Below, piece by piece: positions 1 to 62,200 of a DNA stretch of 64,000 bases (its first letter is position 1; the number at the start of each line of letters is the position of its first letter). The position numbers and the translations under genes were made by a program. The stretch covers positions 12,894,352 to 12,958,351 of the forward strand of contig NC_092678.1 of the NCBI RefSeq assembly GCF_964355755.1, in the 5' to 3' direction. The notes below the pieces were generated by a model. The model saw only the letters and a program-made list of their open reading frames with translations, did no database searches and had not been told where the DNA came from. This DNA is from Antedon mediterranea. Its lineage: Eukaryota; Animalia; Echinodermata.

Positions 1-74
1 ATTTGAAAGTTAAAGTAGTGAAATTTATTATTACACATGCTTTAGTCAATTCAGTCACAACAATCAGTACTTAC

Positions 75-17250: not shown

Positions 17251-17283
17251 TGCTTTATAACAACATTCTTAGCTGTAATACGC

Positions 17284-23697: not shown

Positions 23698-23769
23698 CCC
23701 CCCAACCGAGACTCGAACTCGGGCCGCCTGCTTGAAATGCAGATGTCCTAACCATTAGACCACTGGGGC
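23698..23769 (-). tRNA. tRNA-Glu(TTC)-like gene, pseudogene or SINE head
   Basis: GCCCCAG-TG-GTCTAATGGTTAGGAC-A-TCTGC-AT-TTC-AA-GCAGG-..-CCGAG-TTCGAGT-CTCGG-TTGGGGG, followed by a T5 terminator. The 1:72 mismatch and A at position 32 argue against a fully functional tRNA. Confidence 0.7.
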
Positions 23770-25015: not shown

Positions 25016-25221
25016 ATACACTGTTATTCACTGTATGGTATTTATACTTCATTTTACGAAATAAGAAAGAATGAATAGTGCTGTTTAATAATATAACATG
25101 GTTAGAATAATAGCTACTAAATAGGCATACAGATCCGTTGTATTTATTCTCGTATACTGTATTTTACAGTAATTTTAAACATTTTCTTTTATAAGGTAAT
25201 GATGTTCTCTCATCATTAAAT

Positions 25222-26268: not shown

Positions 26269-29200
26269 GTATGCATTGTATTCTTTTTGTCTTCATAACC
26301 AATCAGTCATACTAAAGTGAAGCATGTACATAGTTGTTTTCACAAGAAGAACATTTCTTTATTGCATGTTTAATATAGGTTACATCTGCATTGGTATTAC
26401 CTGTTTGTTGTAATTATAATTTCATTATAATAGCATATAAATATCTGAATAACGATGAAGAAGTTTCTATATTGAATGATACTGTACCTCAAAAATATTA
26501 AATTAAAAAAATATACAATGCTGCACACTAAACAGCTTCATTCTTTTCTTATAGAATATTAATAATAAACTAAAACATTTTAATATTTTGAAAATCAATC
26601 AAAAGCATTTTTAAATGGGTCTATTAATCATAAATTAGACCCTTAAAAGGTCCCTTACAACATCTTTAATTAATTTTATATAAAGAATTAACAATAAAAG
26701 CGTTTTATAAATATCATACTTAGGCTATATGCCTATTTCTATTGATGTATGTGTGATGACATGTTATAACAAATACTGCCTAAAATGGAAAACAATACAA
26801 ACAAAACATGTGTATGACTTTTAAAATTTGACAATACAAAAAAACATATTTGGTATCTTGGGCTTAGATCAACACGAGACATTGCTCAGTTTGTAGATTT
26901 ATACTACCAAGCGTGATTAATAAAACGAACGTCTTCGACACTAAGAGGTCCGCCGAACTTAGTTTAAATCTATATAAAAGTACATCGTAAGTGTATGGTG
27001 TAAAATTCATCAACAATTAAATTGAGTTTTTTACAAAAAAAAAGAAAACAACAAGCACTTCATTGTTATTCTTATTTGACCAATATTTATTTTGGCTTCC
27101 ATTATATTGGAAATGAAAATACTGATATTTGTTTGGTGGTGTTTGGAATGCGATAAGCACTATCGTCAATGGAGAGATCATATAACTCAAGATTTGTATG
27201 CCTGTGGTATAGAGAACATGTCAGTAGTTATTTTCGTGTAACATGCAAAGGTGAGCAAAATCATATAGTAATCCAGCTATGACACAGATACATCGGACGA
27301 TGAAGGCAATGACCAGTGCGCCTGTCTGATACCATCAGATATTGACGTTGGATTTTACATGTCATTACATCCGCTTCATTATAATTTCAACGCTCACTGT
27401 ATTTTTTTTCGGAAATATTTTAAAGCCTATAGTATCAATTTTTGTTAAATTTTGAATGCAGTGTTTTTGTCACAAAACATGGAAATTGTAAAAAATCTCT
27501 TTGAGTTACCGTCAGAACATAACATTAGGCCTATATCATATTAGAGTTTTTCGAAGCCATAAAGAATAAGGATAGCATTCATTTTTTTTTTATAAGCAAT
27601 TGAGTTTGGTTCCCTACACCTCATGTCTGTCTAATTTCAGGAACTGTCAATTTTAGCATCCTACTACAAAAATGATTTATCTAAAATATTCAACGTGTTT
27701 CTGGTATGTTCTTTGAAATGTCTGTCAACATTTTCGACATCTGCAGACGATGTGCTTCTTCAGTTTAAACCTAATAAAAAGAAGATCTGTATCATATTCG
27801 AATTCACAATACATACAACAGAAGGAGGGCTCGTGCTGAGCCTAAGCTCAAGTGAGGTTCTTGTAATAGTCCGGTATCGGATAGTGATAGGGCTATCTGT
27901 TGGATACAAAGAAACTATTTATTGTGTTGCTGTCTTATAACAATGCCGTAAAGAAAAGAGAAATGATAGGCCTAATATATAAGTGTGATAACGATAATAA
28001 AAATAAAAGTGTATCGTAATAAATTCCCCTATCTTTGATATCTTTCATTATAGTCTCGTATGCCCATTTGGGAGGAAGGAGAGACGATGGCGTTCAGTGG
28101 ATCCCCCCGGTCACTTGTATATAAACCAAACGGGGGGGGGGGGGGGTGCAGCAGCCACTTCAAGACATGAGGCACTACCTGTTTTACTGAAAAATACTAC
28201 GGACTTGAACTATAAGTCCAGGAGTATTAGACAAAAAAGGGCCAAAGGTAGAAATAAATATGCTAAAGCTGAATTTTTCAGGATAGGTCCCCAATGTTGT
28301 CTGGAACAACATACTAAAAGTCCCCGGGTTTCCCCGTTGTGCTTCAACCTGATTGGGCCATTTTTCAAAATGGCGGCCATCTTAACATTATTTACCATAT
28401 TTTGACAAACAGTAGGTGTAAGTAAACAATTTTGGTGTCAAAATACTCAGAAGACCAATATTTATATTCACTGTAATGGAGAAGTTTTTAAAAAAATGGA
28501 CTTTGACCATAAATTTGGATTATCTCAATATCTCATCAACGACTGGCCGTAGAGAGTTCAAAATTGTCCCAAATTATTCAGAATGCCCAACTTTCTATTC
28601 ACTCTAATGAAAGTAAAATACTAAATTCCTTTAGAAACCTTCTGTTCTGACCTTTGAACTATTGACCTAAGCATATTTTAATTTTATAGACATCTTAGTG
28701 ATCGATAGGAGTACATAAGTGAAATTGGTGTCAAAATACTCAGAAGACCAATATTTATATTCACTGTAATGGAGAAGTTTTTAAAAAAATGACCGGAAAT
28801 GCATGTTTTGAACTTTGACCCTAAATTTGGATTATCTCAATATCTCATCAACAACTGGCCGTAGAGACTTCAAAGTTGTCCCAAATTATTCGGAATGCCC
28901 AACTTTCTATCTACTTTAATGAAAGAAAAATACCAAAAACCTTTAGAAACCTTCTATTTTGACCTTTGAACCCTTGATCTGGTCATATTTTATAGAATAG
29001 AAAGTTGGGCATTCTGAATAATTTGGGACAACTTTGAAGTCTCTACGGCCAGTTGTTGATGAGATATTGAGATAATCCAAATTTAGGGTCAAATATCAAA
29101 ACAGGCATTTCTGACCATTTTTTGTTAAACTTTTTCATTACAGTGAATATAAATATCTATAAAACTCTAGAACTAAGAAGTTAAAAAGAAAACTTCTTGC

Positions 29201-32200
29201 ATCCGAGTTTCAAAACAAACTCAGGATTATTGGCAATGATTGCCGTAAGCAATCAACGGTAATGGCCTGAAAGGGACATCACAAATTTGGTCTACCTGCA
29301 GACTTAGTCATTTCAACAAAAATGACTCTACCTTCGGATGACTTCAGGGCTTTTAGGAAACCCTGCAGAAGGTTCGTTGGGACTTATAACAAGAATCAGG
29401 GCAACACCTCTGATTCAGTTGTTAAAAATAATTGTCGACTTTCTAAAGGAGAGAAAAAACGTCTTTCCCGAGGACCCCAAACCAAGGCAGGTCGGCGCAC
29501 AACAACTATCTTTTGATATAGAGTCTTTTTCCAGAAGATTACGATTACGTGAATATTTTGCTGATTTAGACAGCAGCACGATGCAAAACGAAGGCAACAT
29601 TACCAAATTTAAACCAAATAGTTCCTGGAATCCACCTAAAAATCGTTGTCCAGCTTTAGAAACATTTATCCAGGCTATTGAGGAGGATGTACAAAACTAC
29701 GTCCCGAGTCCAGATAAACGTGACATTCTCCCAAAACAAGAGAGGCAGGCCAGTTGCGTCAGCGTAATGATATCATCATTAAACCCGCTGATAAAGGTTC
29801 TGCCATTGTTGCTATGGACATCAAATTTTATGAAAAGGAATCCTTAAGACAGCCAAACAATCCTCTTCATTATATATCGTAAACGGACCCCTCCCCCCCC
29901 CCCGGAAATTGCGGATAAGGTGGCCAAATCTGTTTCTGTGATGGTAAAAAAACACTCTATCGATCCTAAGATTGGACTTCATTTGGAACAGGTCAATCCA
30001 GTTCCAGGCAGATTTTATTTCCTACCTAAAATCCACAAAGCAGGCAATCCTGGTAGACCCATTATTTCGGGCAATGGCACTGCTACAGAGGAAATTTCTG
30101 AATATGGGGATGATTTACTTAGACCATATGTGACTAATCTCCCTTCATACATTCAGAACTCCACGGGCTTTATCCGCAAAATTAACCAAATTTCTGACTA
30201 CATTAGATGTTTCATCGTTGTATACGAATATCCCTCACAAAGAAGGAGCTGACGCATGTATTTTAAATTACAAGCAAATTACAGGCAAAACGCCTACTAA
30301 AGCTCATTTATGAGAACAGGTCATGTTGATTTTAACAACAACAATTTTATTTACCTTCAAATTCATGGCACAGCGATGGGCACAAATGGCCTCATCTTTT
30401 GCAAATTTATTTATGGGACAATTTGAGGCCAAATGTCTGTCCCTCCAACCTAATAAACCACTTTTTTTGGTTTTATTTATTTATTCAAGATCCAACAGTG
30501 TAAAGAAAAAACAGGATCGCCATAAATAAAATATATATAGATACATTGACGACATCTGCATGATCTGGACCCATGGTGAAGTTAATTTGTAATTTTTTCT
30601 TCTCAATATTAATTCAGCCCACCCAACTATCAAATTTACAGCTACCAAATCCACTAGTAGCGTTGATTTTTTTATCCGTAAACCTGCGGATAAAAATATG
30701 TACCTGCTCTCTAGCAGTTGTCATCCCCAACACTGTACTAAAAACATACCGAACAGTAAAGCATTACGTGTCAGACGCATCTGTTCTTCAGATTTAGATT
30801 TTCAGAATCGTACCGAAGAACTAACCGGACATCTCCGGAATAGAAATTACAAGAAGGAATGCATCAAAACTGCTATAAAGAAAGCAAAAAATATTCCTCG
30901 ATGTCAAACACTGACGTACAAACTACGTCAGCCAAATTCGACTGGTGCCATTGGTCACAACCTATCGCCCTAGGTTGCCTCCATTACGGGCTATTAATTT
31001 ATTGAGAAACATATGCTCATTCTAAAGTCCACAGAACCTCCCAGAACTGTTTTTCCGGAACCACCCATTATTGCATTTCGTAGACCTCCCAACCTTCGTG
31101 ATATATTAGTCAGATCCTAATTTAATTGTGAAATCTCATATTCTAATGAAACAGTTCATTGATTTTAAGTTATGTTTACACTATCAAACTAGTTTGACAA
31201 AATAAAAAGTCACCTTTGAGGCAAATCTTGCAAAACTTGTTCATTGGTTGGTTCTAATGAAAAATTTAAGAGTAACCAAACTGGCCGCATTATTCGGATA
31301 AGACAATCAATTAATATCGTTTAACCAAAAACGTCATTTATCTCATATACTGTAATATTTGTGGAAAACAGTACGTCGGAGAAAAAAAAAATTTACCCGA
31401 GTCTGTACTTGTTATATATATTTGGCTTATATACGTTTTAAGTGAAACTCTTAAACTATTTTTCCTTTTAGAATGGTAATGATCATTTTATCGTCATTGA
31501 TGTGATATATTTTTTGTTTTGTGTTAGTTAAACTTTATTAAATTAAACATGTTGTTTTAGGTGTTTTTTTTGCTGCTGGTGGTATCTACAATATCTAAGC
31601 TACGCCATACTTGGGGTAAATGGGGTCTCTAATCGAACTTTAGAGGGGTCTGCCAGGGCCAAGGCAGTGTACTAGTCTGTAATAGGTCATTTGGTATTGC
31701 TTACAATGTGCTAAATTATGTAACATTGGTTGCTGGTGGTATCTATAATATCTAAGCTGGGCTAGTGGGGGAAAGGAGAGTAGTCTAACTTCGCAGGTGT
31801 CTGCGATGCAGCAGACAATTAGTCTGTTGTCATCCATTTAGTATTGTATGAACACAACTTGTTCATTTGGCATTAATTTTGAGTGGTACCTCACTCATCT
31901 ATGCTAACCCCATTTTAGGCCCTCCCTGGGGGAGAAGGGGGGGGGGGGGTCTGGCGGGCCTTTTACAGCAGACAAAAGTCTGTCATTTGTGATACTGTTA
32001 TAAGGATGCCAATGGGCATCCCATGGTGGTAAAATTAGGTGCTATCTCTCTCATCTAACCGGGGCCGATTTTTTAGCACGTTTTGGGCCCCCCCCCCCCA
32101 GTCTAGACGCAGCAGGGTGTACCCGGCAGACTCCCATTTTCATTGACTTCAAGTGACCCACAACACACTTAAATAGTCAGATATTGGTACCTAGCTCATC

Positions 32201-35200
32201 TAACCAAATGTCTCTGGGCTGCCGGTCTAATAAGGCAGTCGGCAATGTCCGAGTTAAGGGGATGACTAAAATCATTCCATATCACTCTAAACAAATTGCG
32301 CAACCATTCATGATAGACCCAGTCCACCACAGGTAATTCACATCCAACCATCCTCCCTGCCCTCCTCACCAACCTGTCTATTCTATCCCTATATCCCCTA
32401 CCAACATTCCAAACCTCAACCCAACAGACAATATCCCCAAACAGAACTAATCACTGACAAATAAAACATACGAAGGATGTGGCTATCAACATTAAATGAG
32501 CGTAGTTTACGTAGGCAGTACATGCGTGAATTTAGTTTCTTTATAATTTAATTTATGTGTTCCTCCCAGGACAGATATTCAGCAAAAACCACCCACAGAT
32601 ACTTAAAACTAGATACCCTCTCTACTTTAGTATTCTTTATAAGCACGTATTTAGCCTCGACCCTCTTTTCAGTCCGGAAATCTATCACCATATCTTTGGT
32701 TTTTGAGACTTTCAATTCCAAATAATTTAAATCACAATATTCTACAAATCGTTTAATTTCTGAAATATACTGAGAATCATCATACCCCCTGATTAACCAA
32801 TGAGAGCAGTGTCGTCAGCGAATTTAATAGCAGGACAGGAGGTTTGGTCATTAGATCTAAAGTCAGCGGTATAGACTGAAAATAGAAATGGAGCTAACAC
32901 CGTACCCTGGGGTGCGCCTGTGTTTGTAAAAATTAAATCCGAGATGGCTCCTGTACTTAACTTAACATATTGACTACGATTTACTAAAAAATTATATATA
33001 AAGAATATTAGTGAGTGCGGGAGTTCCATATTAAACAATTTATTAATTAGGAGAGGTTGGATAGTGTTGAAGGCGGAGCTAAAGTCATAATATATGATTC
33101 TCACAGAGTGAACGAATTTAGCTACGCTTTCAAGATGAGAGTATAATATCTTTTCGAGTTTAAGCAATATATAGCATCTTCAGTATTTCGTGAACTTCTG
33201 TACGCGAATTGCAGCGAGTCTAAATATTGGGAGATTAACGGCTTTAACTTATTGAGGACAATCCTTTCACACACTTTCATAACAACAGAGGTTAAAGCAA
33301 TTGGTCATACATTTGACACTATTATTTTTCGGGACAGGGACGATACATTTTTTCCAAATGTTGGGCAGTAAATGATTTAAGAAACAAACATTAAAAATGG
33401 TATTAAAAATTCCAGCTAACTGTGAGGAACATGTTTTAATAACTTTTGATAAGATAAAGTCCGGGCCAGTTGCTTTAGAAGCTTTCTGGCGGGAAACATA
33501 TCTCCTCACTTCAGCTACATCAGTTTGGAACTCGTATGCACAGGCGTCGTGATTTGATAGTAGGGTGTCCTTGATAACCTTCTGTTCAGATGCAAAATCA
33601 TATTTGTCAAACCTGTTGTAGAAGTTGTTAAGTTTATTTGCGTATTGTCCATTCATATTACTATTTGTTACTTCCCGGCATTGATACGCTTGAATAACCT
33701 CTTATTTGTCGCATGCCTTTCCAAACTTTGTTTACGTCGTTATCACCGAGATTTTTTTCAATTTTCTTCTTATATATACGTTTCTGTTCCTTTATTTCAC
33801 GTTTAAGTTCATGTTGGATGATTTTAAGTTGATCTTTGTCACCGCTTTTGAACTCGATTTTTTCCTATTGATGATTGCTTTAACACTCGGAGTGATCCAT
33901 GGCTTGTTATTGCTGTATAACTTAATTTCTTTGGACGGTATCGCGATATCTGTGCAGAAACCAATATATGAACTCACGGATTCTGTCAATTCATTTATAT
34001 CTGACGATTTTTCAGTAAAAACAGACCAGTTGGTGGCGTCAAGTTTAATCGATCAATATTTTCCGGTGACCAACATTTCACTACTATCTTCCTCTGTTTC
34101 TGTCTTTGTACAAGGGGCTTATATTTCGGAGAACTAAGTTTGTGATCCTCCTAAGTTCGGTAGTTTCGTCGACGAGTACGCGTTTTTCACATTGGAATAA
34201 CAGATATCCAATGTGGCTGCATCCCGGGTGCGATTTTTTTTTTCGTACATAAGTTGGGGACCCCCTCATGAAACGTCACAAAATAAACATGAATAATTCA
34301 TCAGCTAAATTTTCTTGTTCCGTGTGCACCCAAGCGTATAGCGAAGTGATTACAGTTTACACAAGTGCGGTACGATTCTAGGCCTATCTCCGCTGTGGTT
34401 GCCGCGTGCGATTATTTCATAATAGAATAGCGGCGTTTTGTGTGGATTGTCGAAATAATCAGCCTTTAGTTTATGGTGTTTTTAATATAATTTATTACTA
34501 AAGAATTACGTGTTAAAATTATAGTTTCTAATGATACTATTAGGCCTAATTACTAGTCTCTAAACCCATGTCTATTCTAGTAGTAGCTGTGTTGGTGTGT
34601 GTGACGTGTGTGTTAGTTAGGTATGACACAGTCCGAGTAATAAGTCAGCAAAATTAAACAATAAACATTACACAAAAATACATTTTTTATTCTCGTGGGT
34701 CTAATCTTCCCATCTCATGTGTTCATATACGCGCATTTTTAAAGTTCCTTTGAGTACATGCATATTGTTTGATAATTGATAGCAGAATTAAAAAATTACA
34801 GTGCACAAATTATACACATTCTTTATTCTTGTGGGTCTAAGCTTTCTTTGGGCTATGTCCAATTACTACTTAGTTTAATGTCTTGCCTAGGTGTCGATTA
34901 GCCTCAACACATTTTGCATAGTGGACGTGTGTGTGAAGAAGAGGTGCGCGAAGGCAATCACGTGAATTGACCTAGAATCCTAGGCCTCAATCAATCAATC
35001 AATCAATCAAAGTAACATTTATTTCTCTTGTCTTTCATAGAAAATAAAAATTAACAGTAAAAATTTTTAAAATAAGAGGGGCAACATTCCTAAAAAGCAA
35101 AGCTTGTATAAGGCAGCCCATAGAAAATGAAAAAAAAAAAACAGGACAACACGGGAACCGGAAACAGGACAAAAACAGTAATGAAGACTTTTAGATTCAG

Positions 35201-38200
35201 GGTACCGAAAAGACTAAATATCAAAACTACAATGAGTGAAAGGATAATTAAACATAACTAGATAAGAGGTGCCGTTTCAATTTAAAAGGAAAACTCTTCT
35301 TAGACAAAGCACTTTTTATATTAACTGGTACGTTATCCCAAAGTTTAGGACCAGTGAACTTAATGCTATGTTTAAAAGAAGTAGTTTTAAAAAAAGGAAT
35401 ACGTATTTGATTTGCGCTTCGAGTACTGTGGTTATGAAAATTAAGATTGAAACTAAATAAATCATTAAAGTGTGATGGCAGGATCGAGTTTAGCCATGAA
35501 TAGAGGAAAACACTTTGTTGAAGATGGTTAATATCCTGAATTTTAAGAAGACCAAATGAAGAAAATAAAGGATTGGAATGGGATAAAGGAGAGCATTTGC
35601 TATGTATCTTACGGTTTTCTTTTGGATCAATAACAGTTTGTTTAAGTAGAAAGAATCGTATCGCGGTTGTTGTGTAATCAGATCACTTCTTGTTGCTATA
35701 CGCTTGGGTGCACACGGAACAACAAATTTAACTGATGAATTATTCATGTATATTTTGTGACGTTTCATGAGGGGGTCCCCAACTTATGTACGAAAAAAAA
35801 AATCGCATCCTGGGTACCACAAGATACGTGTTGGTGGTGTGTTCCAATTTTGGTTTCATTGCATTTGTCAACAAGTATCTAAGGTAAAATATAATTGGTT
35901 AAAGAATGATGATCCTAGTTTTTCTGGTATTGCAGAACGTGTTCTGCATTAGCAAACAAAATTATGACCTTACTCGGCGACATTAAAATCGGACAGGAAA
36001 GAATGCAATCGGATATTGATGAGGTGAAGAAAGATGTGAAAGTAAATAAAGATCAGATTAGAATCTTGACCAAGAAGTCTAGTAAGGTAGATTATCATGT
36101 TGGTAAATTTAATGAGGAGGTTTCTGAGCTTGTTGATTAAAATGTGAAGATATTAATGAAAGATCGAAAGGAAAAAAAAATGTAATCTTTGGATTTGAAG
36201 AGAGCTCTAGTCCAGATACTGCCGTAAAGAAATTATATGATCATGATTTTATTAAGAACCTAATAGTCCGGTGGCAGGAGAAATCACCACTCGAAAGGGG
36301 ACAAATTGCCATCCAACTTTTCTAGACCAAAATTTTCCGTACATTACGAATATGGAAGGTAATCGATCAGGATAGGAAGCTTTTTCTAGATATAAGGGTC
36401 AAAGTTCAAAATTGACCAATTACAACAATGTATTATGTATATGTATTATAACACATTTATTGCAGCACAATTTGGTCTTTTATTACATTTTTATGATTAT
36501 AGGTGTTTATTAATAATAATAAACAGTATTTATATAGCGCCTAATTGATCACTGACCCCTCTAGGTACTTTACATTAGACCTTAACTAATGGTAATAAAC
36601 TATCCCCCGCCGGACACCATTCCGGTATTTCTTAGTCGAGGTTTCGGGGATGGAGACAATCAATAATGTGGAAAAAAAAGTAACTAAGCTTAACTATGCT
36701 TAACTAAGGTAAAACTATCCCCCGCCGGACACCATCCCGGTATTTCTGAGTCATGGTTTCGGGGCCAGAATTAAGAATAGAGAGTAAATGAAGCATGCAC
36801 TAACTTAAGCTACGGTTAAACTATCCTCCGCCGGACACCATCCCGGTATTTCTGAGTCAAGGTTTCGGGGAAGGAATACATGAATGAATGAATAAGTTAA
36901 TTAATACCGGATGAGAACAGATGGGCTTTCAGTCGTGATTTAAAAATACTGACTGGCTTGCTTTATCAACGCTTCTATGAATGGATGACTAGTTGGGAGC
37001 AGTAACGCTAGAGTACCAAACCCAGTACCGTTTTTTATTACGATCATGCGGAAAATTACCTCACGACGTAAGAAAGCAACGAGCTGCTTTTCATATACAA
37101 CAAATAGACTTAAAGACATTGCCAATTGCCTACTAATGAACATTATATAACCTAAAATTATCATCACAATATTAATTTAGTTATACAGAATTGTAGAATA
37201 AACGATTGTCTTGGTTGTAAATTTGTAAATTGAAGTCTTACTATAATATTTTTTGGGGGAAATGATAAAAGCGATAAAATTGGTAAAAAGAAATTAGCAA
37301 TCACGTTATTTTTTTCGTAGATTTAAAGCTACCAAAGCTGAAATTACCAATGTGCCTGAACAGTTACAACTTTAAAACGTTGCAAAAGTTAAAAAATAGT
37401 TGGTAGCAAAAAACATTAAAGATAAAAAGACAATAATATGCTTACTGTTATCATAATACGTTGTACGTTTGTGAAAGTCTTTCAGTTTTACTGCTGCTGA
37501 TGTTCAGTCATTGATGAGTCTTCCAAATGACGGTAGGCAACTATACAGACGTTATTCACAAGGTACCTACACAGAAGCAGCAGTATCAGAGGCATTGCTA
37601 ACAGTTAATGATAAAATACTAACATCAGTCACTACAGAAATTGAAGAGAATCGTACAATAGCATTCATAGGCACAGGTAATGGACAACTTATTAAGGTTA
37701 GTAGGCCTACTACGAATTGTTCAATTTGAAATTTTGAAATTGATTATAAAGTTACAGAGATACAAATACACTTTTTTATTTCAATATAACAAGTGTCCAC
37801 AAAGAAATCGCAAAGGGCACGTAAACAAATAATGTATGTCTTTTAAAACTCACTTGGGGACAACAAAGAAAAAATGAAGTATGATTGTTATGTTTTGTGT
37901 ATCAGTATTTTCCCTGTCGACTTAATTTATATAAATATGATTACAATTTTGGCATTTCCTTCAGCAAAGAAAAAAAAACCAACATTCGTCGGATGTGCTG
38001 CATCGGATGAACATTCTTTACATGACCTAATTAGGAATAGCTCTTAGCATTCCTACAATAATGAGGCAGGTCCTAAGTATTGTGAAATAAGTTATTTTCT
38101 TCCAATTTGTCAGGCTGAGTTAACAAACAAAACATCATCTAGACCGTATGAAACTATCACCATAGATACAGGTCAAGAGGTCAGATCAGACACATTTATA

Positions 38201-41200
38201 GATAAAACATCTTATTATGTAATAGCACTCACAGCAAATAAGGTCAGTTTATTCTAATTTTATGTTATGTTTATCATAATTTATTTTTAATATTTGATTT
38301 TGTTTTATACATAGTATATTTTCCTTGAACATTCATATATAAATATTTGATAAAACAAAAAAAAAAATTTCCCCGTCTCTTCACAAAGGCCGGGACAATC
38401 ACCAAAAGAATAAAAAGCAGTAAAACATCCTGAAAATACACGATTTTACATTTATTTTTATTATTTCATGCTATTTAAAAAATTTACCGAAATGTGCCTT
38501 TGCGTGAATTGATAATAAAATAGCTTAATGTTTTTATACTTTTGATTAGTTGGTCAAGCTACAAGTAGCAAACTGCAGTCAGTTTATCACATGTGATGAG
38601 TGTATCAGACCAGGTAAACTAGATGCAGATCCTTATTGTGGATGGTGTACACTACACAAAAAGTAAATAGAGTTCTTTTTCTTTTCTTTTTCTTTTCTTT
38701 TTCAATCCCAAATTATTATTTTGTCTTTTCCTAATGCATTCGACAAATTATTAAGATATTTTTGTTTGTTTTTTTATTTTTTTTTCTTTTTCAGATATTT
38801 TTGCAAACAATTATAATAAATGTTAGAAATTAGGTAACTGTCTAAATGCTAAATTATTTCAGGCTTAATTATTTCTTCAATATTTTTATTTTATTTTATA
38901 TATAGTTTTTTAAACAGTTTAAAACAAATCTTAATACAAATAAAGAATTTATATGTTCTTCAGTGCAGATAGCACTTACATTTGTCTTTTTTATTTTAGA
39001 TGTACCAGATTTAAAGAATGCCAACAGTCTCCCTGGTTGCCAAGCAACAGTGCACAATGCATTGAGATTACAAATGTTGAACCACCTTTTATCCCTAAAA
39101 CTTTTGAAAATATCAGCGTGAGTTGTAAAGAACAATTTATTAAATTGTTTTCTAGGCTTTTAATATTTAATAATAAATAACATGCCATTGGCTGGAGAAT
39201 TTTAGCACTACTAAGGCAGGGGTACTAGTACAAACTATATCTATATTATCGGCACATCTATCTTAGGGTTCAAGCCTATCCTTAGCCATAGTAATTCTGG
39301 ACTCAAAACTGGCTGGAGATCCAGTGTACATCTGGCTTGTGATGCTTGTTCAAAAAGGGAATTATCCATTTATATAATAACAAGTTTTAATATGTATGCA
39401 ACTTCATAGCTTAAATGTGTTTATTCATAGATTTCTGTAACTGTTGAGCAACTTCCTTCTTTAAACATCAACCAAAATTATAATTGTACATTTGGTGACT
39501 TTCAATCATCCGCAATAAAAGATGGAGAAACATTGACTTGTAATTCACCACCTTTATCACATGTGCCACAGATACCAACCAGCCAAGGTGAGTTAAACAT
39601 TATGCTAATATGCTTTACTTTCTGTTTTATTGTTCTTTATTTAATGTAACTGTAGCAGTGGCTAGTATTTCACACATGGTATGCATTCTTCTCAGTAGGA
39701 GGTGTATACTATTAATAGCTCATGAGGAAATAGGTTTTTGTACACACACCATGGAGTACAGAAATCATGCACACGTCACTACTCTACATTGGCAACAAGG
39801 GGGATCCCCCAAAGTGACCCTTGTTTTAACCTAGTGATATCTTAGGCTCTGTCTACACTATCAAACTAGATTAACAAAACAAATATGGTAGTGATATGCC
39901 CAAATATGGTAGTGATATCACATCATCCTCTCCATATATGGGCACATAACATATTTTGGTAGTTATTTGCACCAACTATTTAAACCTATCTACCTCGGGA
40001 AAAAGTAAGTAATTAAATATTACATTTAGGTTTTTTGTAGAGATTTTTTGTATTTACCCATGAAATGCATTTGAAATTAAGGCCTAGGCCTACACATTAG
40101 CTAACCTCTAAATAATTTGTTTACAGCTTTTGTAGATGTTATTTTATCAGTTCACTCATCTGTAACTGATGTTGATTTTGTTTCCACTGACTTTACATTC
40201 TTTGACTGCAGTGCCATTACTTCGTAAGTACTGACTGAATTTTTTTATAAGCATGTGTAAAAAATAAACATTTAAAATATTTCAAATTCACTACTTAAAC
40301 TATCACATTTTTTATTGTAAACACACATTTTCTAAAGATAATAACAAAATAAAAGGATCTAAAATTCAAGTGACACATTATTTTAAGGAAATAAATGTTT
40401 ATTTAGTTTCTACTGCACCAGAATGTAAACATAAACTGTAATGTAATGTAAAGTATAGGAATTAAAATAAAATATTGATAATATTGTTGTAATGGGACAG
40501 TTGTAATTGTGTAATACGATACTGTACAAACATGTGTCAGACAGCAGCAACCACGGCTCTTTTGAAAATATAATTCATTTGCACCAACAACAAACAACAG
40601 TAAATAGCCACAACTGGACAACTCTCAATAATGTAACAAGAAATGTAATGCAACAAAAAAAAACCAACCAATTCTCAAACAATCGCCCTTTACAGTATCC
40701 CTATTCCCAATACAATTTATACCATTTTCCAAATTTCCCAATCCTTCCAGACAAAATATCAACAATCTTCTTATTGCCAAATAAATCCTAGAAACCCCCC
40801 TTTCAAATACAATAATATCACAGGATGAATAATTAAACGAATAATAAAGGTCCACAATATCGTTCCTTTTTGTTTTCTCTCCTACGCTGACACAAAAAAA
40901 ATTAGAAAAATAAAAACGATTCTGCAACTAAACAACTCCCACGCCTCTGCTCCTGTTTTGCTGGTATTACCAATTATAATTCTTCCCAAACTGCAACTAT
41001 TTTCTTACATATAAATAAATTAAAAAGAAAGTTAAAATGTTTCTTGATGTCGTTCTGTACTGCAATCCGCTCCCCGACCAATTATTTCTTTCTCCTTTCA
41101 CGTAAAGTTACTCTTCAATATTTTCAACAATTCTTTAAATTCAATTAATTCTACTATTTCCAACAGTTATTTCTTTCTTCAATTTACATACAAAATTTCA

Positions 41201-50200: not shown

Positions 50201-53200
50201 AAACTTAGGCCTAAATCTATTTTTAAAAACCACAAAACAAAAATTGATAGAGATATTATTTTAAAATGAATGGATGTATCTAGCTTGTTACTTAATAATT
50301 ATTTCTACCAATACCATGTTAGTTAATTCATATACACTAGAATTCTCGATAACAACTCCACTTCCAAAAACTTGTTGTTTCATATGGAACGCCGTTTACG
50401 CAACATTTCGATGATATGAATTGTATGACGCGATATGTGAATGAAATGCATCGATATGAATTGAATGGCGCGATATTTGAATGAAATGTTTTGAATTGAA
50501 TGCTTTGAATTGAATATTTTGAATGAAATGTTTTGAATAAAATGTTTTGAATGCAATGTTTTGAATGAAATTTTTTGAATGAAATGTTTTGAATGAAATG
50601 TTTTGAATGAAATGTTTTGAATGTACCCTCATCTCCTTTCCACGCTGTCATCAATATGGATCCTTTACAGAGAATGCTAACAGACCTGAAACAGTGTAAT
50701 ACATATTTCCAAATCCAGGTCTGTAAGGATTCTCTGTAAAGGCAACGTGGAAAAGAGATGAGGGTACCCAGGCTTAGGCATAAGAGGTTGAGAAAAAAAT
50801 CGCGAACGGGAATGACATACGCCGCCAATAGTTTGACTTTTCAATTCAATTCAAACATTTCATTCAAAAAATTTCATTCAAAACATTTCGTTCAGAACAT
50901 TTCGTTCAAAACATTTCATTCAAAACATTTCATTCAAAACAATAAATTCAAAGCATTCAATTCATTCATATATCGCGCCATTCAATTCATATCGATGCAT
51001 TTCATTCACATATCGCGTCATAAAATTCATATCATCGAAATGTTGCGTAAACGGCGTTCCATAGTTTCAGGAAGTTTTTGTGGTATAATTTTCCTGTAAA
51101 TGTCATATTTCATTTTGGCATTATTGTGTACTTTTAATGGCTTTTTGGAAAACATTTCTTTCTATCTAGTATGACTACACAGCTAAGGACAAGCAGGAAG
51201 TAAACGCATATATTAAAGTATTTTGGAACGACAATGAAATTGACAATGCTTATCAAGGTTGGTTTCACCTGATTGTTTACATTGATAAATATCATTAAAT
51301 CAATTATTTACTTGGTAAACATAACATCATACATTTTGTTATCATATATCCACATACCCCTGTTCAATTTTCCATTAAAAAAAAATGTAACTCCTGAAAC
51401 AAATACAGTATTCCTAGTACCTCTTTAACAACCCTATTTTTATATTGACTGTTTCTGCTTATTTTGTGCTCCCAAAAAACCAGTAAATCAGTGTGCGGTG
51501 TATAGTGGACAAAAAAAACGGTAAGATTACCCAAAATGCTGAGAACCGCTCAAGCTTTGGAATGCTACTGTAGTTCACCCAAGGTTAACTACAATCAATC
51601 AAATTATGCACAAACATTTATTTATTTTGTGAATGCCATTTAACAACCACAAATCTGTCTCATTTATGCTACAAATTAGGGATAATTTATTCAAACAGTT
51701 ATTAACCAAAAAAAAGAACATTATACAGTTATTAACAGCTTAAAAACAGTCAACTGAAAATTCTTTAAGCTCGCCCAAACTGTCATATTCTTGAAAGTCT
51801 GGTTTTCCAAATAAATTTTACATACAGTTTTAGTTAAGTATAAACAGAATTCAACGCTTTTGTTCAACTTGATTTCAGACAAACTGTCCACATGTAAATA
51901 CAATAAAAACATTTGAACATTATGATAGGTTCCTGGTTCAGATATTCAGAGATGTGGTTTCAGCTGACACTGACAGACAATTAAGTGTTTTTAACATAGT
52001 ACAATTGTTCTTTAATGAACATATTAAATGGTTGTTTAAATTTTAAACAGGAAGTTTAACAACAATTTACTTTACTAAGTATTGACTCAACACCACATTG
52101 TTCAAACAACAGGATGTATATAATTACAGTCAATTTGTTTGTATACTATAAACCCCTACTTCATTCCCTTTATTGTTCTGGTGTCATTCTGTGCAAATAA
52201 TATTATACCCATAATGGATGGATAATGTGTATTTGTTTGAATAATTATTAGTTACAGTTTTTAGTTTATCCTTAAATGTTATCATGACATATGTCTTGTC
52301 ATAATACATATATAATATTAATGTTATCTACTCTCATCCAACCAGGCTTTGAGACGTGTTTTCAAAACCTGGTAAATAAAACCAATTTATTAAATATCAT
52401 GTGTTAGCATACAGCCATTTTATACGAACGCTGTCAAAATATGATAAAAATATGTATCATTCTTTTTTTATGTTGTTTTTGGCATTTTAATATTCAAAAC
52501 AAAGTCACAAGATCATAACTGATAGTGACACCTTCGTAATATGCTAATGATATGATATTTTGTCAGTTAATGCTTCATTTTTACATTTAATTTCTCTACT
52601 TTTATTTACCAGTCACATTGTACAAGTGTAGTGTTCAACGTCCAGACTGCAGTCGATGCTATTCAATGAACACCACTAGGTCTGGACTTGATTGTGTCTG
52701 GTGTACTGGAGACCAATGTTCCTACAGTCCATTGTGTTCATCAATAGTGAATGAATGTCCATCACCTGTCATTATTCAGGTAATTTGAATCATTTTATCT
52801 TCCTTTAAAATCCAGCACTCTAGCCTAACTTAAATTTGTTTGAAATGTTGTTTGCTAGTCGCCCTCTATTACTCGTTCATCTATATATAAATTTACGTAA
52901 GGGCAAAATTCGGTAAATCGCGCCTTACTTTAGAATGTAAAGTTGGTTCGTACTTTCGGTACTGATTTTAACCACCTGATGTAACCCTGTTTACTAATTA
53001 AATTAAGTTAGATAATTAGTTATTGACGATTAAAACGAATTTAGGTTCAACGATTTGCCCCAGATAGGGGTGTTTTCCGATCGTGGTATACACTGTCTAA
53101 TGGATGTCCATCTTGAAAAATACCCGCCACAAAAATGCGAGGAGGCTTCGCATTTTCCTATCTCCTCCTACGATAATTGTTTTTAATAGCTGAAAACCGG

Positions 53201-56200
53201 TTGAACAGCTCGAGTACAGTATCATAATGTTGAAGACAGGCCGGTTTTCCTAAAAAAATACTATTTTGATAGATTTAATATACGTTTATACAAATGTATT
53301 GATTTGCGATGAATGGAACATTCCAATCTCTGTGTCGTTCCACAAGTGTCTATTCCCTCAGGCGTCGTAAAGGAAAGTACTGTATACTCATAACAGAAAT
53401 TCGATCCATTTTTTTTTCAATCTGTGCTGCAGAGGTTGGATATAATTTTTTTTAAACGGATAATGAGCTAGCGTTTTCAGTCACCGTAATTTAATATTTA
53501 TTACCGATTAAATCGAATTTATGATTTGCCCCGAATAGAGGTGGTTTTCACAAATTGTTTAACATTATATATAAACATACGTCGTAGTGTATCGTTACAT
53601 GTACTGTACTATTTCAATCGACTACGACGGTGATAGTTAAGTTTCAACAAAGTATTACATCGCAATGTTTTACTGTGTTTAGTGGTATATTATTTGTAAA
53701 ACATGTTAATTAATATTTCGTTACAAAATAAAGAATATATTTAAAAATTGTTCCTCTTTGCACCCATCCTCTTCCCCATCTCTCAACCATAATGTTACAT
53801 ACAAAACACAAATTAAGTTTGTTTAAATTTGACTTAAACAATTGGTCTCATTTTGTGACAACTTTCTCTTTCGGAAGTAATTCTCAGGGTGCTAATTTTA
53901 GTTGAGTACATAAATCACAGTGTCTATTTAATCGTTCATGTAAACGACATATATTATTGTCCTGCATTATTGTACATTTGAAATCGCCAGTTTTTTAACG
54001 CTGAAATTACTGTGTATTCGAGAACCATCTGTGGGCACGACCTAGATGGTACGCTCGCTTCGCTCGCGTACCATCTAGTAGTGTGTAATTTACATTACAG
54101 TATATATTTATCGCAGAAAGGGCAGAACATTTAGTCTGAAAATTAGAAGATTAGAAGAAAAGGGTACTGAAAGAGTATATGATATTTGAGCAAATTGTTT
54201 TACTCCAAAATATCCAATGGTTTTTTTTTTGTGATTATACCAATCATGTTTGTTTTTTTTTAAATATCCATCATGCTTTTATGTTTTACTAATATTATTT
54301 TCAGACTCTTCCCATCTCAGTTGCTACAGTAACTACTCAACCTGAACCTGATTTCACAGAGGTCATTGAACTGTTCGGAACTGATTTTGGACAGATGATG
54401 TCAGATATTGACAACTTTATGATAGATAACAAAGAATGTGTAATAGTTGCTGATGGATTTAACATAGCTTTACAAAGGTATTTTAAATAAAATTTAATTT
54501 AACATTAATTATGTAGCACTAAGTCTGTACTTGTTTCTGGTGAGATCCTTCAAGCTGTACATAAGCCAAGTTTCATACAGGACCAACGGAATAACATCTC
54601 ATCCGGAAGATAGTGCACTATATTCATGTAATCCAACCCATAAGTTAGAACACAGAGAGATGGCGATTGAACCGTGAACCAAACCTATTTCATGGTTCAG
54701 TGCACAACACAGGTAATACCCTCAGTTTAACCGAATATGCCTCTCTTTCTGTGTATTGTGATAATGTGTGTATGGACAACAAGTAAATATATTATGATTG
54801 CTACTGTATGTATTCAGCTTTCACTGATGTAATGCAAAACAGATCATAATATAAGTAGTTGATACCCATCCTACAGACGGGTATCTTTGACAACTCTGTG
54901 CTACCATGTTAAGATGCCTCAAATTTGTCTCATCTTATACAAACATTTTCTAAAAGCATTTTTATGGAAAACCACCACTAACATGAGATGAAATACACAA
55001 CACTTCTGTAACTTATCACACATTTATTTATTTATTTATTTTATGTCTTTAGGCAATGTGGCCAAGGATTACCAATAGTGAATTAATCACTGTCCTATCA
55101 CATAGGTGGTAATCCCCCTGATACAGGGGCTATTGTGTGAACCAGTTCACCGGGGTAACCCCCTACTCTTTTTCGAATAATGAACTGGGTTTCTTTAAAG
55201 TACACACAGGTCATAACTGTGTACACTCGCCCTACGGTTTATAGTCCTTATCCGAGAAGACTTGTTCCACCACCAGAACTAGGAGCGAGTCGGCCTCGAA
55301 CCCTTGCCGAGGTTGTTGTTGGCTCTTTAGGTACGGTAAACGGCGCCCCTGCCTTAACCGTAACCGTAACATAATCCATAAACTATTTGATTGGTTCGTT
55401 TATTAAGCATCATGTGCCATGCATTATTGCGATCCATCCTCAACATTGGGAGTAACATTGCATGTTATTTTTTTTATTATAATTATTTTTGTGGTGTATA
55501 TCAGTAAAAAAGAAAATTCTATTATTTACTATACACAGTGTGAAATGTAAAGCTCCTGTGTTTGATAGTGTCTCTCAACGTGAAGTCATCATAACTGTTC
55601 AAGGAAAGACAAGCGCACCTGTAGTCATACTCTATCAGGTATATTTTTTCACTCAAATTTCACAATTGTTTTAATCTTGCCTTAATGTAGAAAGAAGAGT
55701 CAACCTTAATAAATATTTTTATATAATTACTAAAGTTATTTTAAAATGTTTATTCTACAGTAATCATGTATATTTGTTGTAAACTTGTGGTATTCATGAT
55801 ATTAAATGAACACTAGAACCAGCCAAGAGTGAAGATACATTCACTTATTTCTTCTACTGTACGTTCACTCTTTTCTTCTACTTTAACTCTTTTCTTCTAC
55901 TTTCACTCTTTTCTTCTACTTTCACTTTTTTCTTCTACTTTCACTTTTTTCTTCTACTTTTACTCTTTTTTCTACATTCACACCTGCTAGAACGAGATAA
56001 GAGTGAAATTAATGCAATTTCACTCTTTTCTTCTACTTTCACACCTGCTAGAACGAGATAAGAGTGAAATTAATGCAATTTCACTCTTTTCTTCTACTTT
56101 CACACCTGCTAGAACAAGATAAGAGTGAAATTAATGCAATTTCACTCTTTTCTTCTACTTTCACACCTGCTAAAACAAGATAAGAGTGAAATTAATGCAA

Positions 56201-59200
56201 TTTCACTCTTTTTTCTACTTTCATTCCTGCTAGAACAAGATAAGAGTTAAATTAATGCAATTTCACTCTTTTCTTCTACTTTCACACCTGCTAGAACAAG
56301 ATAAGAGTAAAATTAATGCAATTTCACTCTTTTTTCTACTTTCACTCCTGCTATAACAAGATAAGAGTGAAATTAATGCAATTTCACTCTTTTCGTCTAC
56401 TTTCATTCCTGCTAGAACAAGATAAGAGTGAAATTAATGCAATTTCACTCTTTTCGTCTACTTTCACTCCTGCTAGAACAAGATAAAAGTGAAATTAATG
56501 CAATTTTACTCTTCTCTTCTACTTTCATTCCTACTAGTAAAAGAAAAGATATTGTCGTGAGGTGGTTTCCCGATTAATCGTACGATCAAAACGGTACTGG
56601 GTATGATCAACTAGCGTTCGTGTTCCCACCGAATCATCCATTCATAGAAGTACTGATGAAGATATCAATCTGTGGCGACAATAGAATGGACCCGAGACCT
56701 CATGAGGTAATTTCCCGATTGATCGTAATCAAAACGGTACTGGGTTTGGTCTACTAGCGTTCCTGCTCCCAACCAGTACATCCATTCATAGAAGCCTTAA
56801 TGAAGTAAGCCTACCTGGTGGTGGCCATAGAACGGTCCCGAGATAACGACTATACTTCGGCTTTAGTCGATAGAAGATTGAATAAATTGTTAGAGATAGA
56901 GTATACGATGTTATGATTATGTGTAGATATGTGATTTGTTCTTTTTATTCCAATGATGTTATGTATTTAATAAATTTGTTATATCAAATAATTAAATTAT
57001 CGTAGATTGCATATTATGCGATGAATATTATTTAATACATTTTTGATATATTATTATTATTATATTAATAAAAAAGATATTTGTTAGTATAAATTAAAAA
57101 ATATAGATATAAGGAAGAAAAGCAAAGAGATTATGGAGCGGCTGTACCAGAATATACAACACTAAGTATTGTAAAGTTAATATATTAAAAATTTAGGCGA
57201 TCTTGTCAAAGGTCAAGCGCCTTCAGCCTGCCACGTTTCGATATTCAATATTGAACTTGACCTGACGTGGTTCCACAATATCTTTATATGAAAATGGTAG
57301 AGTGGATAGAAACATAAATTAATTTAAATTTAAAATGTTTACCTTAAACTGGTTTTGAACTGAATCGGTTGATGTCTTATCGTTGTATGTATGATTTGGT
57401 TTAAATTATGTTCGATAAAAGTGCGTATGCGTATAGAATGAAATGCTCGCGTTACGATGTACGCGTGTAATGCTGTTTATATCGTATAATAGATAAAGGA
57501 TGAAAATATAGAAGGTATGATGGTAGAAAAATAAAAAGCAGTTTAGGATGTAGAAATAGGAAAAGTTTGTTAGTGCAAAAGTGTAGATTTTGAATGTGAG
57601 AAATGACTAGAAAGTACATTCCTGCTAGAGTCCTATGTCGGCACCTAGGCCTATATAACGTCATGAGGTAATTTCCCGATTGATCGTAATCAAAACGGTA
57701 CTGGGTTTGGTCTACTAGCGTTCCTGCTCCCAACCAGTACATCCATTCATAGAAGCCTTAATGAAGTAAGCCTACCTGGTGGTGGCCATAGAACGGTCCC
57801 GAGATAACGACTATACTTCGGCTTTAGTCGATAGAAGATTGAATAAATTGTTAGAGATAGAGTATACGATGTTATGATTATGTGTAGATATGTGATTTGT
57901 TCTTTTTATTCCAATGATGTTATGTATTTAATAAATTTGTTATATCAAATAATTAAATTATCGTAGATTGCATATTATGCGATGAATATTATTTAATAAA
58001 TTTTTGATATATTATTATTATTATATTAATAAAAAAGATATTTGTTAGTATAAATTAAAAAATATAGATATAAGGAAGAAAAGCAAAGAGATTATGGAGC
58101 GGCTGTACCAGAATATACAACACTAAGTATTGTAAAGTTAATATATTAAAAATTTAGGCGATCTTGTCAAAGGTCAAGCGCCTTCAGCCTGCCACGTTTC
58201 GATATTCAATATTGAACTTGACCTGACGTGGTTCCACAATATCTTTATATGAAAATGGTAGAGTGGATAGAAACATAAATTAATTTAAATTTAAAATGTT
58301 TACCTTAAACTGGTTTTGAACTGAATCGGTTGATGTCTTATCGTTGTATGTATGATTTGGTTTAAATTATGTTCGATAAAAGTGCGTATGCGTATAGAAT
58401 GAAATGCTCGCGTTACGATGTACGCGTGTAATGCTGTTTATATCGTATAATAGATAAAGGATGAAAATACAGAAGGTATGATGGTAGAAAAATAAAAAGC
58501 AGTTTAGGATGTAGAAATAGGAAAAGTTTGTTAGTGCAAAAGTGTAGATTTTGAATGTGAGAAATGACTAGAAAGTACATTCCTGCTAGAGTCCTATGTC
58601 GGCACCTAGGCCTATATAACGTCATGAGGTAATTTCCCGATTGATCGTAATCAAAACGGTACTGGGTTTGGTCTACTAGCGTTCCTGCTCCCAACCAGTA
58701 CATCCATTCATAGAAGCCTTAATGAAGTAAGCCTACCTGGTGGTGGCCATAGAACGGTCCCGAGGTCAAGTTCAATATTGAATATCGAAACGTGGCAGGC
58801 TGAAGGCGCTTGACCTTTGACAAGATCGCCTAAATTTTTAATATATTAACTTTACAATACTTAGTGTTGTATATTCTGGTACAGCCGCTCCATAATCTCT
58901 TTGCTTTTCTTCCTTATATCTATATTTTTTAATTTATACTAACAAATATCTTTTTTATTAATATAATAATAATAATATATTAAAAATTTATTAAATAATA
59001 TTCATCGCATAATATGCAATCTACGATAATTTAATTAATTGATATAGGCTAGGCCTAACAAATTTATTAAATACATAACATCATTTGAATAAAAAGAACA
59101 AATCACATATCTACACATAATCATAACATCGTATACTCTATCTCTAACAATTTATTCAATCTTCTATCGACTAAAGCCGAAGTATAGTCGTTATCTCGGG

Positions 59201-62200
59201 ACCGTTCTATGGCCACCACCAGGTAGGCTTACTTCATTAAGGCTTCTATGAATGGATGTACTGGTTGGGAGCAGGAACGCTAGTAGACCAAACCCAGTAC
59301 CGAATTGATTACGATCAATCGGGAAATTACCTCATGACCACACAGTACACAACTTGACATCGCGCACATTGTATACGCTAGCATTTCATTCTAATACGCT
59401 CACGCACTTTATCGAACATACTTTTAAACCAAACCAAAACCATACAACGACAAGACATCCATCGATTCAGTTCAATACCATTTTTAGGTAAATTTTGAAT
59501 TAATTATTATTTTCTATCAATTCTACCATTTTCATATAAAGATATTGTGGAACCACGTCAGGTCAAGTTCAATATTGAATATCGAAACGTGGCAGGCTGA
59601 AGGCGCTTGACCTTTGACAAGATCGCCTAAATTTTTAGTTTTTAACTTTACAATACTTAGTGTTGTATATTCTGGTACAGCCGCTCCATGATCTCTTTGC
59701 TTTTCTTCCTTATATCTTTACTCTTTTTAAAAGTTTTACTAACGATTTTTATTTTATTTTATTATAGGCTATTTATATTTTTTGCTTTATGTACACGACA
59801 ACTAACGATCAAATAACAGTTTTTTCACATCGCAACTTATACAACGTAATTTTGAAAACTACAACCATTTTTTTCTATATACATACAACGTACATTTCTA
59901 TTTTAACAAAAACATTTTTCTAAACTTTCTATTATTTAAAAGTCGAAGATAGCCAGGTCTCGGGTCCATTCTATTGTCGCCACAGATTGATATCTTCATC
60001 AGTACTTCTATGAATGGATGATTCGGTGGGAACACGAACGCTAGTTGATCATACCCAGTACCGTTTTGATCGTACGATTAATCGGGAAACCACCTCACGA
60101 CATTATACAGGCCTAGGTGCCGACATAGATCTCTAGTGGGAGTTAACCATCATAGTCATTCCTCACATTCAAAATCTTTCCTGTAACTAACAACCCATTC
60201 CTTTTTCTATACATCCTATACTACTTATTTATATCCTACCTTTATACCTATGTTATTTTCGCTCTACTACAATGTACGATACACTTATAATCTTACATGT
60301 ACCACACAGTACACAACTTGACATCGCGCACATTGTATACGCTAGCATTTCATTCTAATACGCTCACGCACTTTATCGAACATACTTTTAAACCAAACCA
60401 AAACCATACAACGACAAGACATCCATCGATTCAGTTCAATACCATTTTTAGGTAAATTTTGAATTAATTATTATTTTCTATCAATTCTACCATTTTCATA
60501 TAAAGATATTGTGGAACCACGTCAGGTCAAGTTCAATATTGAATATCGAAACGTGGCAGGCTGAAGGCGCTTGACCTTTGACAAGATCGCCTAAATTTTT
60601 AGTTTTTAACTTTACAATACTTAGTGTTGTATATTCTGGTACAGCCGCTCCATGATCTCTTTGCTTTTCTTCCTTATATCTTTACTCTTTTTAAAAGTTT
60701 TACTAACGATTTTTATTTTATTTTATTATAGGCTATTTATATTTTTTGCTTTATGTACACGACAACTAACGATCAAATAACAGTTTTTTCACATCGCAAC
60801 TTATACAACGTAATTTTGAAAACTACAACCATTTTTTTCTATATACATACAACGTACATTTCTATTTTAACAAAAACATTTTTCTAAACTTTCTATTATT
60901 TAAAAGTCGAAGATAGCCAGGTCTCGGGTCCATTCTATTGTCGCCACAGATTGATATCTTCATCAGTACTTCTATGAATGGATGATTCGGTGGGAACACG
61001 AACGCTAGTTGATCATACCCAGTACCGTTTTGATCGTACGATTAATCGGGAAACCACCTCACGACATTATACAGGCCTAGGTGCCGACATAGATCTCTAG
61101 TGGGAGTTAACCATCATAGTCATTCCTCACATTCAAAATCTTTCCTGTAACTAACAACCCATTCCTTTTTCTATACATCCTATACTACTTATTTATATCC
61201 TACCTTTATACCTATGTTATTTTCGCTCTACTACAATGTACGATACACTTATAATCTTACATGTACCACACAGTACACAACTTGACATCGCGCACATTGT
61301 ATACGCTAGCATTTCATTCTAATACGCTCACGCACTTTATCGAACATACTTTTAAACCAAACCAAAACCATACAACGACAAGACATCCATCGATTCAGTT
61401 CAATACCATTTTTAGGTAAATTTTGAATTAATTATTATTTTCTATCAATTCTACCATTTTCATATAAAGATATTGTGGAACCACGTCAGGTCAAGTTCAA
61501 TATTGAATATCGAAACGTGGCAGGCTGAAGGCGCTTGACCTTTGACAAGATCGCCTAAATTTTTAGTTTTTAACTTTACAATACTTAGTGTTGTATATTC
61601 TGGTACAGCCGCTCCATGATCTCTTTGCTTTTCTTCCTTATATCTTTACTCTTTTTAAAAGTTTTACTAACGATTTTTATTTTATTTTATTATAGGCTAT
61701 TTATATTTTTTGCTTTATGTACACGACAACTAACGATCAAATAACAGTTTTTTCACATCGCAACTTATACAACGTAATTTTGAAAACTACAACCATTTTT
61801 TTCTATATACATACAACGTACATTTCTATTTTAACAAAAACATTTTTCTAAACTTTCTATTATTTAAAAGTCGAAGATAGCCAGGTCTCGGGTCCATTCT
61901 ATTGTCGCCACAGATTGATATCTTCATCAGTACTTCTATGAATGGATGATTCGGTGGGAACACGAACGCTAGTTGATCATACCCAGTACCGTTTTGATCG
62001 TACGATTAATCGGGAAACCACCTTACGACATTAACAATTTTATGAAATATTTTCCGCTGACCAATTTTCATACTATAAATATATATTATATATATGTTGT
62101 TATGTTTGTATATAAACATTTGTTTTTTTTTTAAATATTAAAAACAATTATTAATCATACAGATTGTAATACCTGTGTTTTATTAGTATATATTTATTAA

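Follow-up and report, generated by a model that had tools for sequence, protein, structure and literature searches.

Can the strands of a hammerhead ribozyme, arranged in an order that none of the classical types displays, make up a ribozyme in the nuclear DNA of an animal, and what kind of repeat carries them? These questions are raised by a 76-nt motif in the genome of Antedon mediterranea (assembly GCF_964355755.1, contig NC_092678.1), of which we analysed a window of 64,000 nucleotides (positions 12,894,352 to 12,958,351 of the forward strand). The initial annotation had described the motif as a hammerhead core with the strand order X-Z-Y, a covariant U3-A8 pair and a four-way junction. 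While the X-Z-Y order does lie outside types I, II and III, it was already known: it corresponds to the block order S-G-C, that is, to the type SGC described and experimentally validated by Eckert et al. 2023 (PMC10085705). In the available text of that work, five SGC examples were cleaved at the predicted site, and four helices, including the one that joins stems I and II, were validated by disruption and rescue.

The motif, its copies and the insertion that carries them

Every segment claimed for 59553-59628 was found in its place (Table 1). Stems III, I and II have the claimed 6, 8 and 3 bp, stem II with G10.1-C11.1, and all of these pairs are Watson-Crick, as are those of the 5-bp AGGCG/CGCCU helix and of the 4-bp UUCA/UGAA hairpin. 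The core holds U4, G5 and A6, A9, G12, A13 and A14, the pair A15.1-U16.1 and an H at position 17, with stems I to III in register. In the crystal structure of the hammerhead, positions 3 and 8 form a tertiary pair, and a Watson-Crick pair between them is present here as U3-A8. Blocks S, G and C follow each other in this order, each uninterrupted, and the AGGCG/CGCCU helix connects the distal ends of stems I and II, as expected for type SGC. The linker between blocks S and G contains a perfect 12-nt palindrome, whose hairpin is also retained by RNAfold. This hairpin is predicted to be the fourth arm of a four-way junction, which would leave one U unpaired; alternatively, the palindrome could pair between molecules. 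Altogether, the hammerhead core, the non-circular pseudoknotted order, the U3-A8 pair and the four-way junction put forward initially are consistent with everything that was tested.

To place the motif among its possible arrangements, we used a descriptor that covers all six block orders with a core of CUGANGA or UUGANAA, a span of at most 120 nt and at least 12 pairs. In the window it recovered only the five intact copies listed in Table 1, which differ at no position and are all in S-G-C order; no type I hammerhead was found in the window among the six orders. A sixth copy lacks everything 5′ of the predicted cut. When the window was shuffled 3018 times with its dinucleotides preserved, both strands yielded 2 matches with the observed 16 Watson-Crick pairs, a count (2/3018) that leaves out the joining helix and the linker hairpin. 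As a positive control, the identical descriptor was run on 120 viral loci: among the matches listed, 40 loci contain ordinary type II hammerheads and 1 a type III. The motif is real and far above chance expectation.

Two other readings of the same stretch were tried and rejected. A split core using the CUGA at 59597-59600 has no stem I partner 5′ of CUGA, and its GA is replaced by AT in most of the depth of public run X5. A kink-turn in the UUGAC/AAGAU stretch shows a register mismatch, as judged by eye against the consensus.

Table 1. Features of the ribozyme motif, of the repeats that carry it and of the flanking plexin exons, in window coordinates
Feature	Position	Strand	Basis or remark
Block S, CCAC-GUC-AGGUCAAG	59553-59567	+	Sequence, descriptor match
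Block S, stem III strand	59553-59558	+	Sequence
Block S, stem I strand	59560-59567	+	Sequence
GUC triplet in block S, predicted cut after C59559		+	Sequence
S-G linker hairpin UUCA-AUAU-UGAA, 4 bp	59568-59579	+	Palindrome check
Block G, AUC-GAAAC-GUGG (stem II strand AUC, GAAA, stem III strand)	59581-59592	+	Sequence, descriptor
Single-stranded linker, 8 nt	59593-59600	+	Last two bases GA replaced by AT in public contigs
Joining-helix strand AGGCG	59601-59605	+	Pairs with CGCCU; cf. PMC10085705, available text
Block C, CUUGACCU-UUGACAA-GAU (stem I strand, core U3-U4-G5-A6-C7-A8-A9, stem II strand GAU)	59606-59623	+	Sequence, descriptor
Joining-helix 3′ strand CGCCU	59624-59628	+	Pairing check
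Ribozyme copy, family B, unit 1 of array	59553 (start)	+	Identical
Ribozyme copy, family B, unit 2	60517-60592	+	Identical
Ribozyme copy, family B, unit 3	61481-61556	+	Identical
Ribozyme copy, family A	57195-57270	-	Identical
Ribozyme copy, family A	58156-58231	-	Identical
Family B 3′-end fragment, 152 nt, left end of composite insertion	56549-56700	-	
Family A array of about 2.15 tandem 961-bp units	56697-58764	-	Head-to-head with the copy at 58763
Family A copy, 576 nt	58763-59338	+	97% identity with the A units on the minus strand
Family B array of about 2.8 tandem 964-bp units	59337-62033	+	0-1 differences between units
3′-end fragment of a third related family, about 110 nt, separate locus	36955-37069	+	Common 3′ end position
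Conserved 3′-terminal segment of the unit	59955-60105	+	Right edge is the end of all five window copies
Nearest detected upstream plexin exon, PSI domain	52591-52785	+	
Downstream plexin exon, IPT/TIG domain	62227-62442	+	

The motif belongs to two families of tandem, non-coding units with one hammerhead apiece, as in retrozymes. The units measure 961 bp (family A) and 964 bp (family B), have a GC content of about 33% and are 70.9% identical between families. They contain no ORF of at least 100 aa, the longest ATG ORFs being 52 and 96 aa long, and the tandem unit junction was found in all four public runs compared (4/4). In the window, the units form a composite insertion with a layout like that of Penelope-like elements, combining a common 3′ end, 5′ truncation and partial tandems with an inverted 5′ copy. 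The four pieces of the insertion and the fragment of the third family all end at one position, located about 545 nt 3′ of the predicted cut, and their 5′ ends vary. The right edge of the conserved 3′-terminal segment is likely the start of reverse transcription. We also considered this segment as a second ribozyme or conserved structure and rejected it (z +1.6; no compensatory pairs in 4-sequence alignments, on either strand).

The minus-strand pieces, whose 5′ ends are at 56700 and 58764, start within about 4 nt of one unit position (about 59955-59959), which lies about 150 nt upstream of the common 3′ end and is possibly a transcription start or a pause site of the reverse transcriptase; in family B, no NUH triplet precedes it. 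No target-site duplication of the insertion was seen by eye. As regards a Pol III promoter, no A box was found and B-box-like matches were isolated ones only.

A 61-bp minisatellite of 9.8 copies (55958-56549) adjoins the left end of the insertion. Plexin exons flank the insertion on the plus strand, placing the repeat in a plexin intron, and the Sema-domain exon of the window has its best match in a feather-star plexin (77% identity). Three intact ribozyme copies (59553-61556) are sense-oriented in this intron and, judging from their orientation, could cut the host pre-mRNA. Elsewhere, the window holds two divergently oriented plexin-like paralogs, at 61-4322 (minus strand) and 25159-40237 (plus strand), about 84-91% identical in their matching segments. 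A Gypsy-like element at 14652-19968 (minus strand) is bounded by identical direct repeats of 66 bp and has an unusual domain order, with integrase domains upstream of RT/RNase H. Another repeat family lies in inverted arrangements at 8481-9717 and 34223-35813, beside decayed RT genes; the descriptor found no hammerhead in it. A 5S rRNA-like sequence (1794-1912, minus strand) and a tRNA-like sequence (23698-23769, minus strand) are possibly pseudogenes or SINE heads.

Sequence variation and junctions around the predicted cut

Families A and B share an identical block of 116 nt (59522-59637), beyond which near-identity continues to 59717. The motif is therefore the same in both, as had been annotated, but because the identical block is wider than the motif, identity between A and B alone cannot single out the ribozyme; the block may reflect recent exchange.

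We then turned to public contigs. The unit was detected in 17 sequencing runs from 8 studies, none of them listed as RNA (run X8 being guessed as RNA), with runs X10 and X15 contributing one record each; this distribution says nothing about expression. In each of the four public runs compared, depth peaks twice, at the motif and at the 3′ segment; summed contig depth does not amount to a copy number. On 59520-59665, run X1 contributed 162 aligned contigs and run X5 157, under two organism codes. Within the motif, differences reaching at least 1% of the depth are limited to linker positions 59599 and 59600, position 59604 and an insertion of T after 59601; the core and stems I to III have none. 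The change at 59604, at about 1% of the depth, turns a C-G pair into a U-G wobble; the stems are invariant, and none of the helices shows a compensatory change among the public contigs. Divergence is greatest in a contig of run X9, from a third organism code, with 16 substitutions over 59548-59718. The 15 that could be placed, by matching depth, avoid all 63 paired or core positions with a P of about 0.001, which rises to 0.007 if the sixteenth, unplaced substitution falls inside these positions. This pattern of variation suggests selection on the core and the stems, with no support from covariation.

The ends of copies were also compared with the predicted cut. The family A copy at 58763 starts at the base after GUC, with a 2-nt AG microhomology at its junction; the chance that any of the 5 window ends falls at the predicted cut is about 1.5%. 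In four public contigs (two from X5, one from X8 and one from X1), unlike DNA is joined at 59558-59560 and the GUGG partner of stem III is kept. The contig junctions come from the pieces listed (32/1935 and 18/322). Among the 14 listed pieces with unlike upstream DNA, 3 start at 59558-59560 and 5 at 59882-59935, where the families diverge; further contig starts are found at 59551 and 59562-59568, and the cluster near the predicted cut is not sharp. A structure-induced stop of the reverse transcriptase would be unexpected at 59558-59560, because the partners of the remaining bases would already have been copied; it would fall at the 3′ side of the motif instead. We consider the junctions at 59558-59560 as suggestive of a cleavage footprint, not as proof of it. 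With several shortened copies starting at the predicted cut, the ribozyme likely cuts in the animal.

Homologs were looked for elsewhere by pattern scans, which gave 15 matches in metagenome contigs, none of them with more than 3 pairs in stem I, and 9 in prokaryote genomes; two sets of viral contigs of at least 120 loci each were also scanned, over 52 and 21 of 64 parts. When wobble pairs were allowed, weak S-G-C matches appeared in 3/120 and 0/120 viral loci (among the matches listed), in 0/15 metagenome loci and in 1/9 genome loci. Three of these four were inspected and judged to be chance matches, the genome match being a G-U-rich stem inside an ORF. No distant homolog of the motif was found in the metagenome contigs, the prokaryote genomes or the listed viral loci.

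A proposed mechanism and its competitors

We think it probable, and hold this with good confidence, that the motif is a monomeric hammerhead resembling type SGC, which cleaves, after C59559, RNA transcribed from a Penelope-mobilised, non-autonomous repeat and whose four-way junction serves in place of a loop-loop interaction. This explanation brings together the block order, the five Watson-Crick helices, the U3-A8 core, the layout, the common 3′ ends and the copies that start at the predicted cut, all of which are observed. Stem III would form first, co-transcriptionally, and stem I would then close as a pseudoknot; stem II and the joining helix would next lock stems I and II at the four-way junction, which would stand in for the usual loop-loop contact. 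Cutting of read-through transcripts would release unit-length RNA, perhaps ligated into circles. The reverse transcriptase of a putative Penelope-like element would start copying this RNA at a fixed site, about 545 nt 3′ of the cut: run-off at the cut end would give the 576-nt copy, passage through intact ribozymes on uncut multimers or circles would give arrays of 2-3 units, and template switches would give the composite insertion. The arrays span intact ribozymes; therefore, cutting is incomplete, or circles are needed, or DNA duplication followed.

It is unlikely that the motif derives from a hammerhead and is now inactive or negligibly slow, with a nested fold dominating, conservation due to protein binding or to recent exchange between families, and junctions produced by microhomology truncations. 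Such a nested fold does exist at -19.7 kcal/mol, with CUUG pairing to CAAG inside the joining helix, and it would sequester C7-A8-A9-G10.1 according to the model. The non-canonical U3-A8 core, the absence of covariation, the excess of the A/B identical block over the motif, the uncut copies held in the arrays and the scatter of junction starts over 59551-59568 in the listed pieces point in the same direction. The nested fold, however, explains neither the 8-bp stem I in exact register nor the invariant core, and substitutions avoid the core and the stems. Moreover, at -10.5 kcal/mol the stem I duplex is more stable than the CUUG/CAAG helix that competes with it (about -4.5 kcal/mol, pseudoknot penalties excluded in this comparison), and stem I can form earlier in transcription than that helix.

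The perfect 12-nt palindrome of the linker and the short stem II are compatible with a strand-swapped dimer, in which blocks G and C of one unit would cleave block S in a second unit, and many animal retroelement hammerheads are described as acting as dimers via palindromic loops (PMC4209133; PMC7229834, available text of both). We regard this as quite unlikely, given that a single 76-nt copy can close all helices, that neighbouring copies are 960 nt apart and that the published SGC ribozymes cut as monomers, at 0.007-0.19 per min in the available text (PMC10085705). Since they do so, the assembly across adjacent units or molecules that the initial annotation had entertained is not required. 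In another reading, the repeat is an ordinary satellite multiplied as DNA that matches a hammerhead by chance. The near-identity of units within an array is also what DNA duplication gives; nevertheless, the rarity of matches among the shuffles, with the extra helices left out of the count, and the five copies with one 3′ end and variable 5′ ends, a pattern of retrotransposition, make this very improbable.

A bolder proposal goes beyond the monomeric, transcript-cutting hammerhead that we prefer. On balance we lean, by a little, towards an active U3-A8, four-way-junction SGC hammerhead that would process, in vivo, RNA from a crinoid retroelement of high copy number and would be one of a layer of rearranged ribozymes of animal retroelements missed by every published descriptor; its three sense copies would also be able to cut the host plexin pre-mRNA. 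The 2023 report of non-circular permutations drew on environmental RNA with unnamed hosts, and the available text places no type SGC in a named genome (PMC10085705). A high-copy animal example would give the SGC fold a host, a likely job in the processing of retroelement RNA, and variation at the scale of populations. If the proposal is true, genomic counts of hammerheads, and likewise statements that some retroelement groups lack them, depend on descriptors that are blind to such wiring. The compact 76-nt form with its four-way junction also bears on two questions left by the 2023 authors, namely how the SGC topology fits in three dimensions and whether it arose by rearrangement or convergence.

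Comparison with published hammerheads and retroelements

As in type SGC (PMC10085705, available text), the 5′ strand of the joining helix stands directly before stem I and its 3′ strand after stem II. The Antedon motif differs from the published examples in several respects. Its S-G linker is a 13-nt hairpin linker, whereas theirs is typically 3 nt long; it combines a stem I of 8 bp with a stem II of 3 bp, while theirs have a stem I of 5 bp and a longer stem II; and it lies in animal nuclear DNA, whereas the RNAs of Eckert et al. come from metatranscriptomes, the genomes of known organisms contributing, in the available text, nothing but one weak GCS candidate. The published SGC cores are CUGANGA, with 3 deviants out of 583, none of them U3-A8 as far as that text goes. 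The covariant U3-A8 core claimed for our motif is present but is itself a known natural variant, described in about 1,300 Schistosoma Penelope-type hammerhead motifs (PMC4209133, available text). In the available parts of the cited hammerhead papers, we found no cleavage rate for a U3-A8 hammerhead.

The claim that standard descriptors would miss the motif held. Rfam gave no hammerhead match in the window at gathering thresholds, and none up to E=5 over 59300-60400. The published SGC descriptor, which in the available text asks for CUGAUGA(U)G and allows an S-G linker no longer than 8 nt (PMC10085705), also fails on it, on both core and linker. Judged by its sequence, the motif falls outside the HRIMA-1 and published SGC alignments, with its UUGACAA core, its 13-nt linker and a stem I different from that of HRIMA-1, which is fixed as AUGU/AACAU in the available description. 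In a subset of HRIMA-1 sequences, the 5-mers UUGAC and AAGAU, which here belong to the core and stem II (59607-59623), flank block C in another structural role, again in the available description; this common occurrence may be a coincidence. No type SGC hammerhead in any animal genome was found reported in the open-access literature. The novelty lies in an SGC hammerhead within a nuclear repeat of an animal, where it combines U3-A8 with a hairpin predicted to create a four-way junction.

The repeat itself resembles the metazoan non-LTR retrozymes (PMC7229834; bioRxiv 10.64898/2026.07.22.740005), which, according to the available texts, are built of non-coding tandem units of low GC content, each carrying one hammerhead, in dimers to multimers. 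It is not a textbook member of this group, since its hammerhead is not of type I and its circle is not self-paired. Indeed, non-LTR retrozymes are defined there by type I hammerheads, whereas the Antedon ribozyme is of type SGC; their units are mostly 150-450 bp long (with a maximum of 972 in Li, Clavereau and Pollet 2026), whereas those of Antedon reach 961-964 bp; and their circles are highly self-paired, whereas the Antedon unit taken as a circle is predicted to fold no better than shuffles (MFE z of +1.2 with 65 shuffles and -1.1 with 79 shuffles).

Penelope-like insertions, as characterized in the available text of Craig et al. 2021 (PMC8557442), are 5′-truncated and include partial tandems together with an inverted copy beside them, and the Antedon insertion shares with them 5′ truncation, partial tandems, an inverted 5′-truncated copy at its 5′ end and the lack of a clear target duplication. 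Penelope-like elements carry RT/GIY-YIG, whereas the Antedon repeat has no such ORF, and no GIY-YIG domain was matched in the window. The hammerheads described in them are of type I or minimal (PMC4209133, available text), whereas this one is of type SGC. Five short motifs of the window gave 0 matches in the published Naiad, Chlamys and Hydra consensus sequences as available, where line breaks could hide matches, and the available Naiad 3′ ends (three from hemichordates, two from octopus), compared by eye, are unlike the Antedon unit. The repeat is likely, from its sequence features, a non-autonomous retroelement, and we propose, by analogy with these systems, that the motif works like a type SGC hammerhead within a retrozyme-like repeat.
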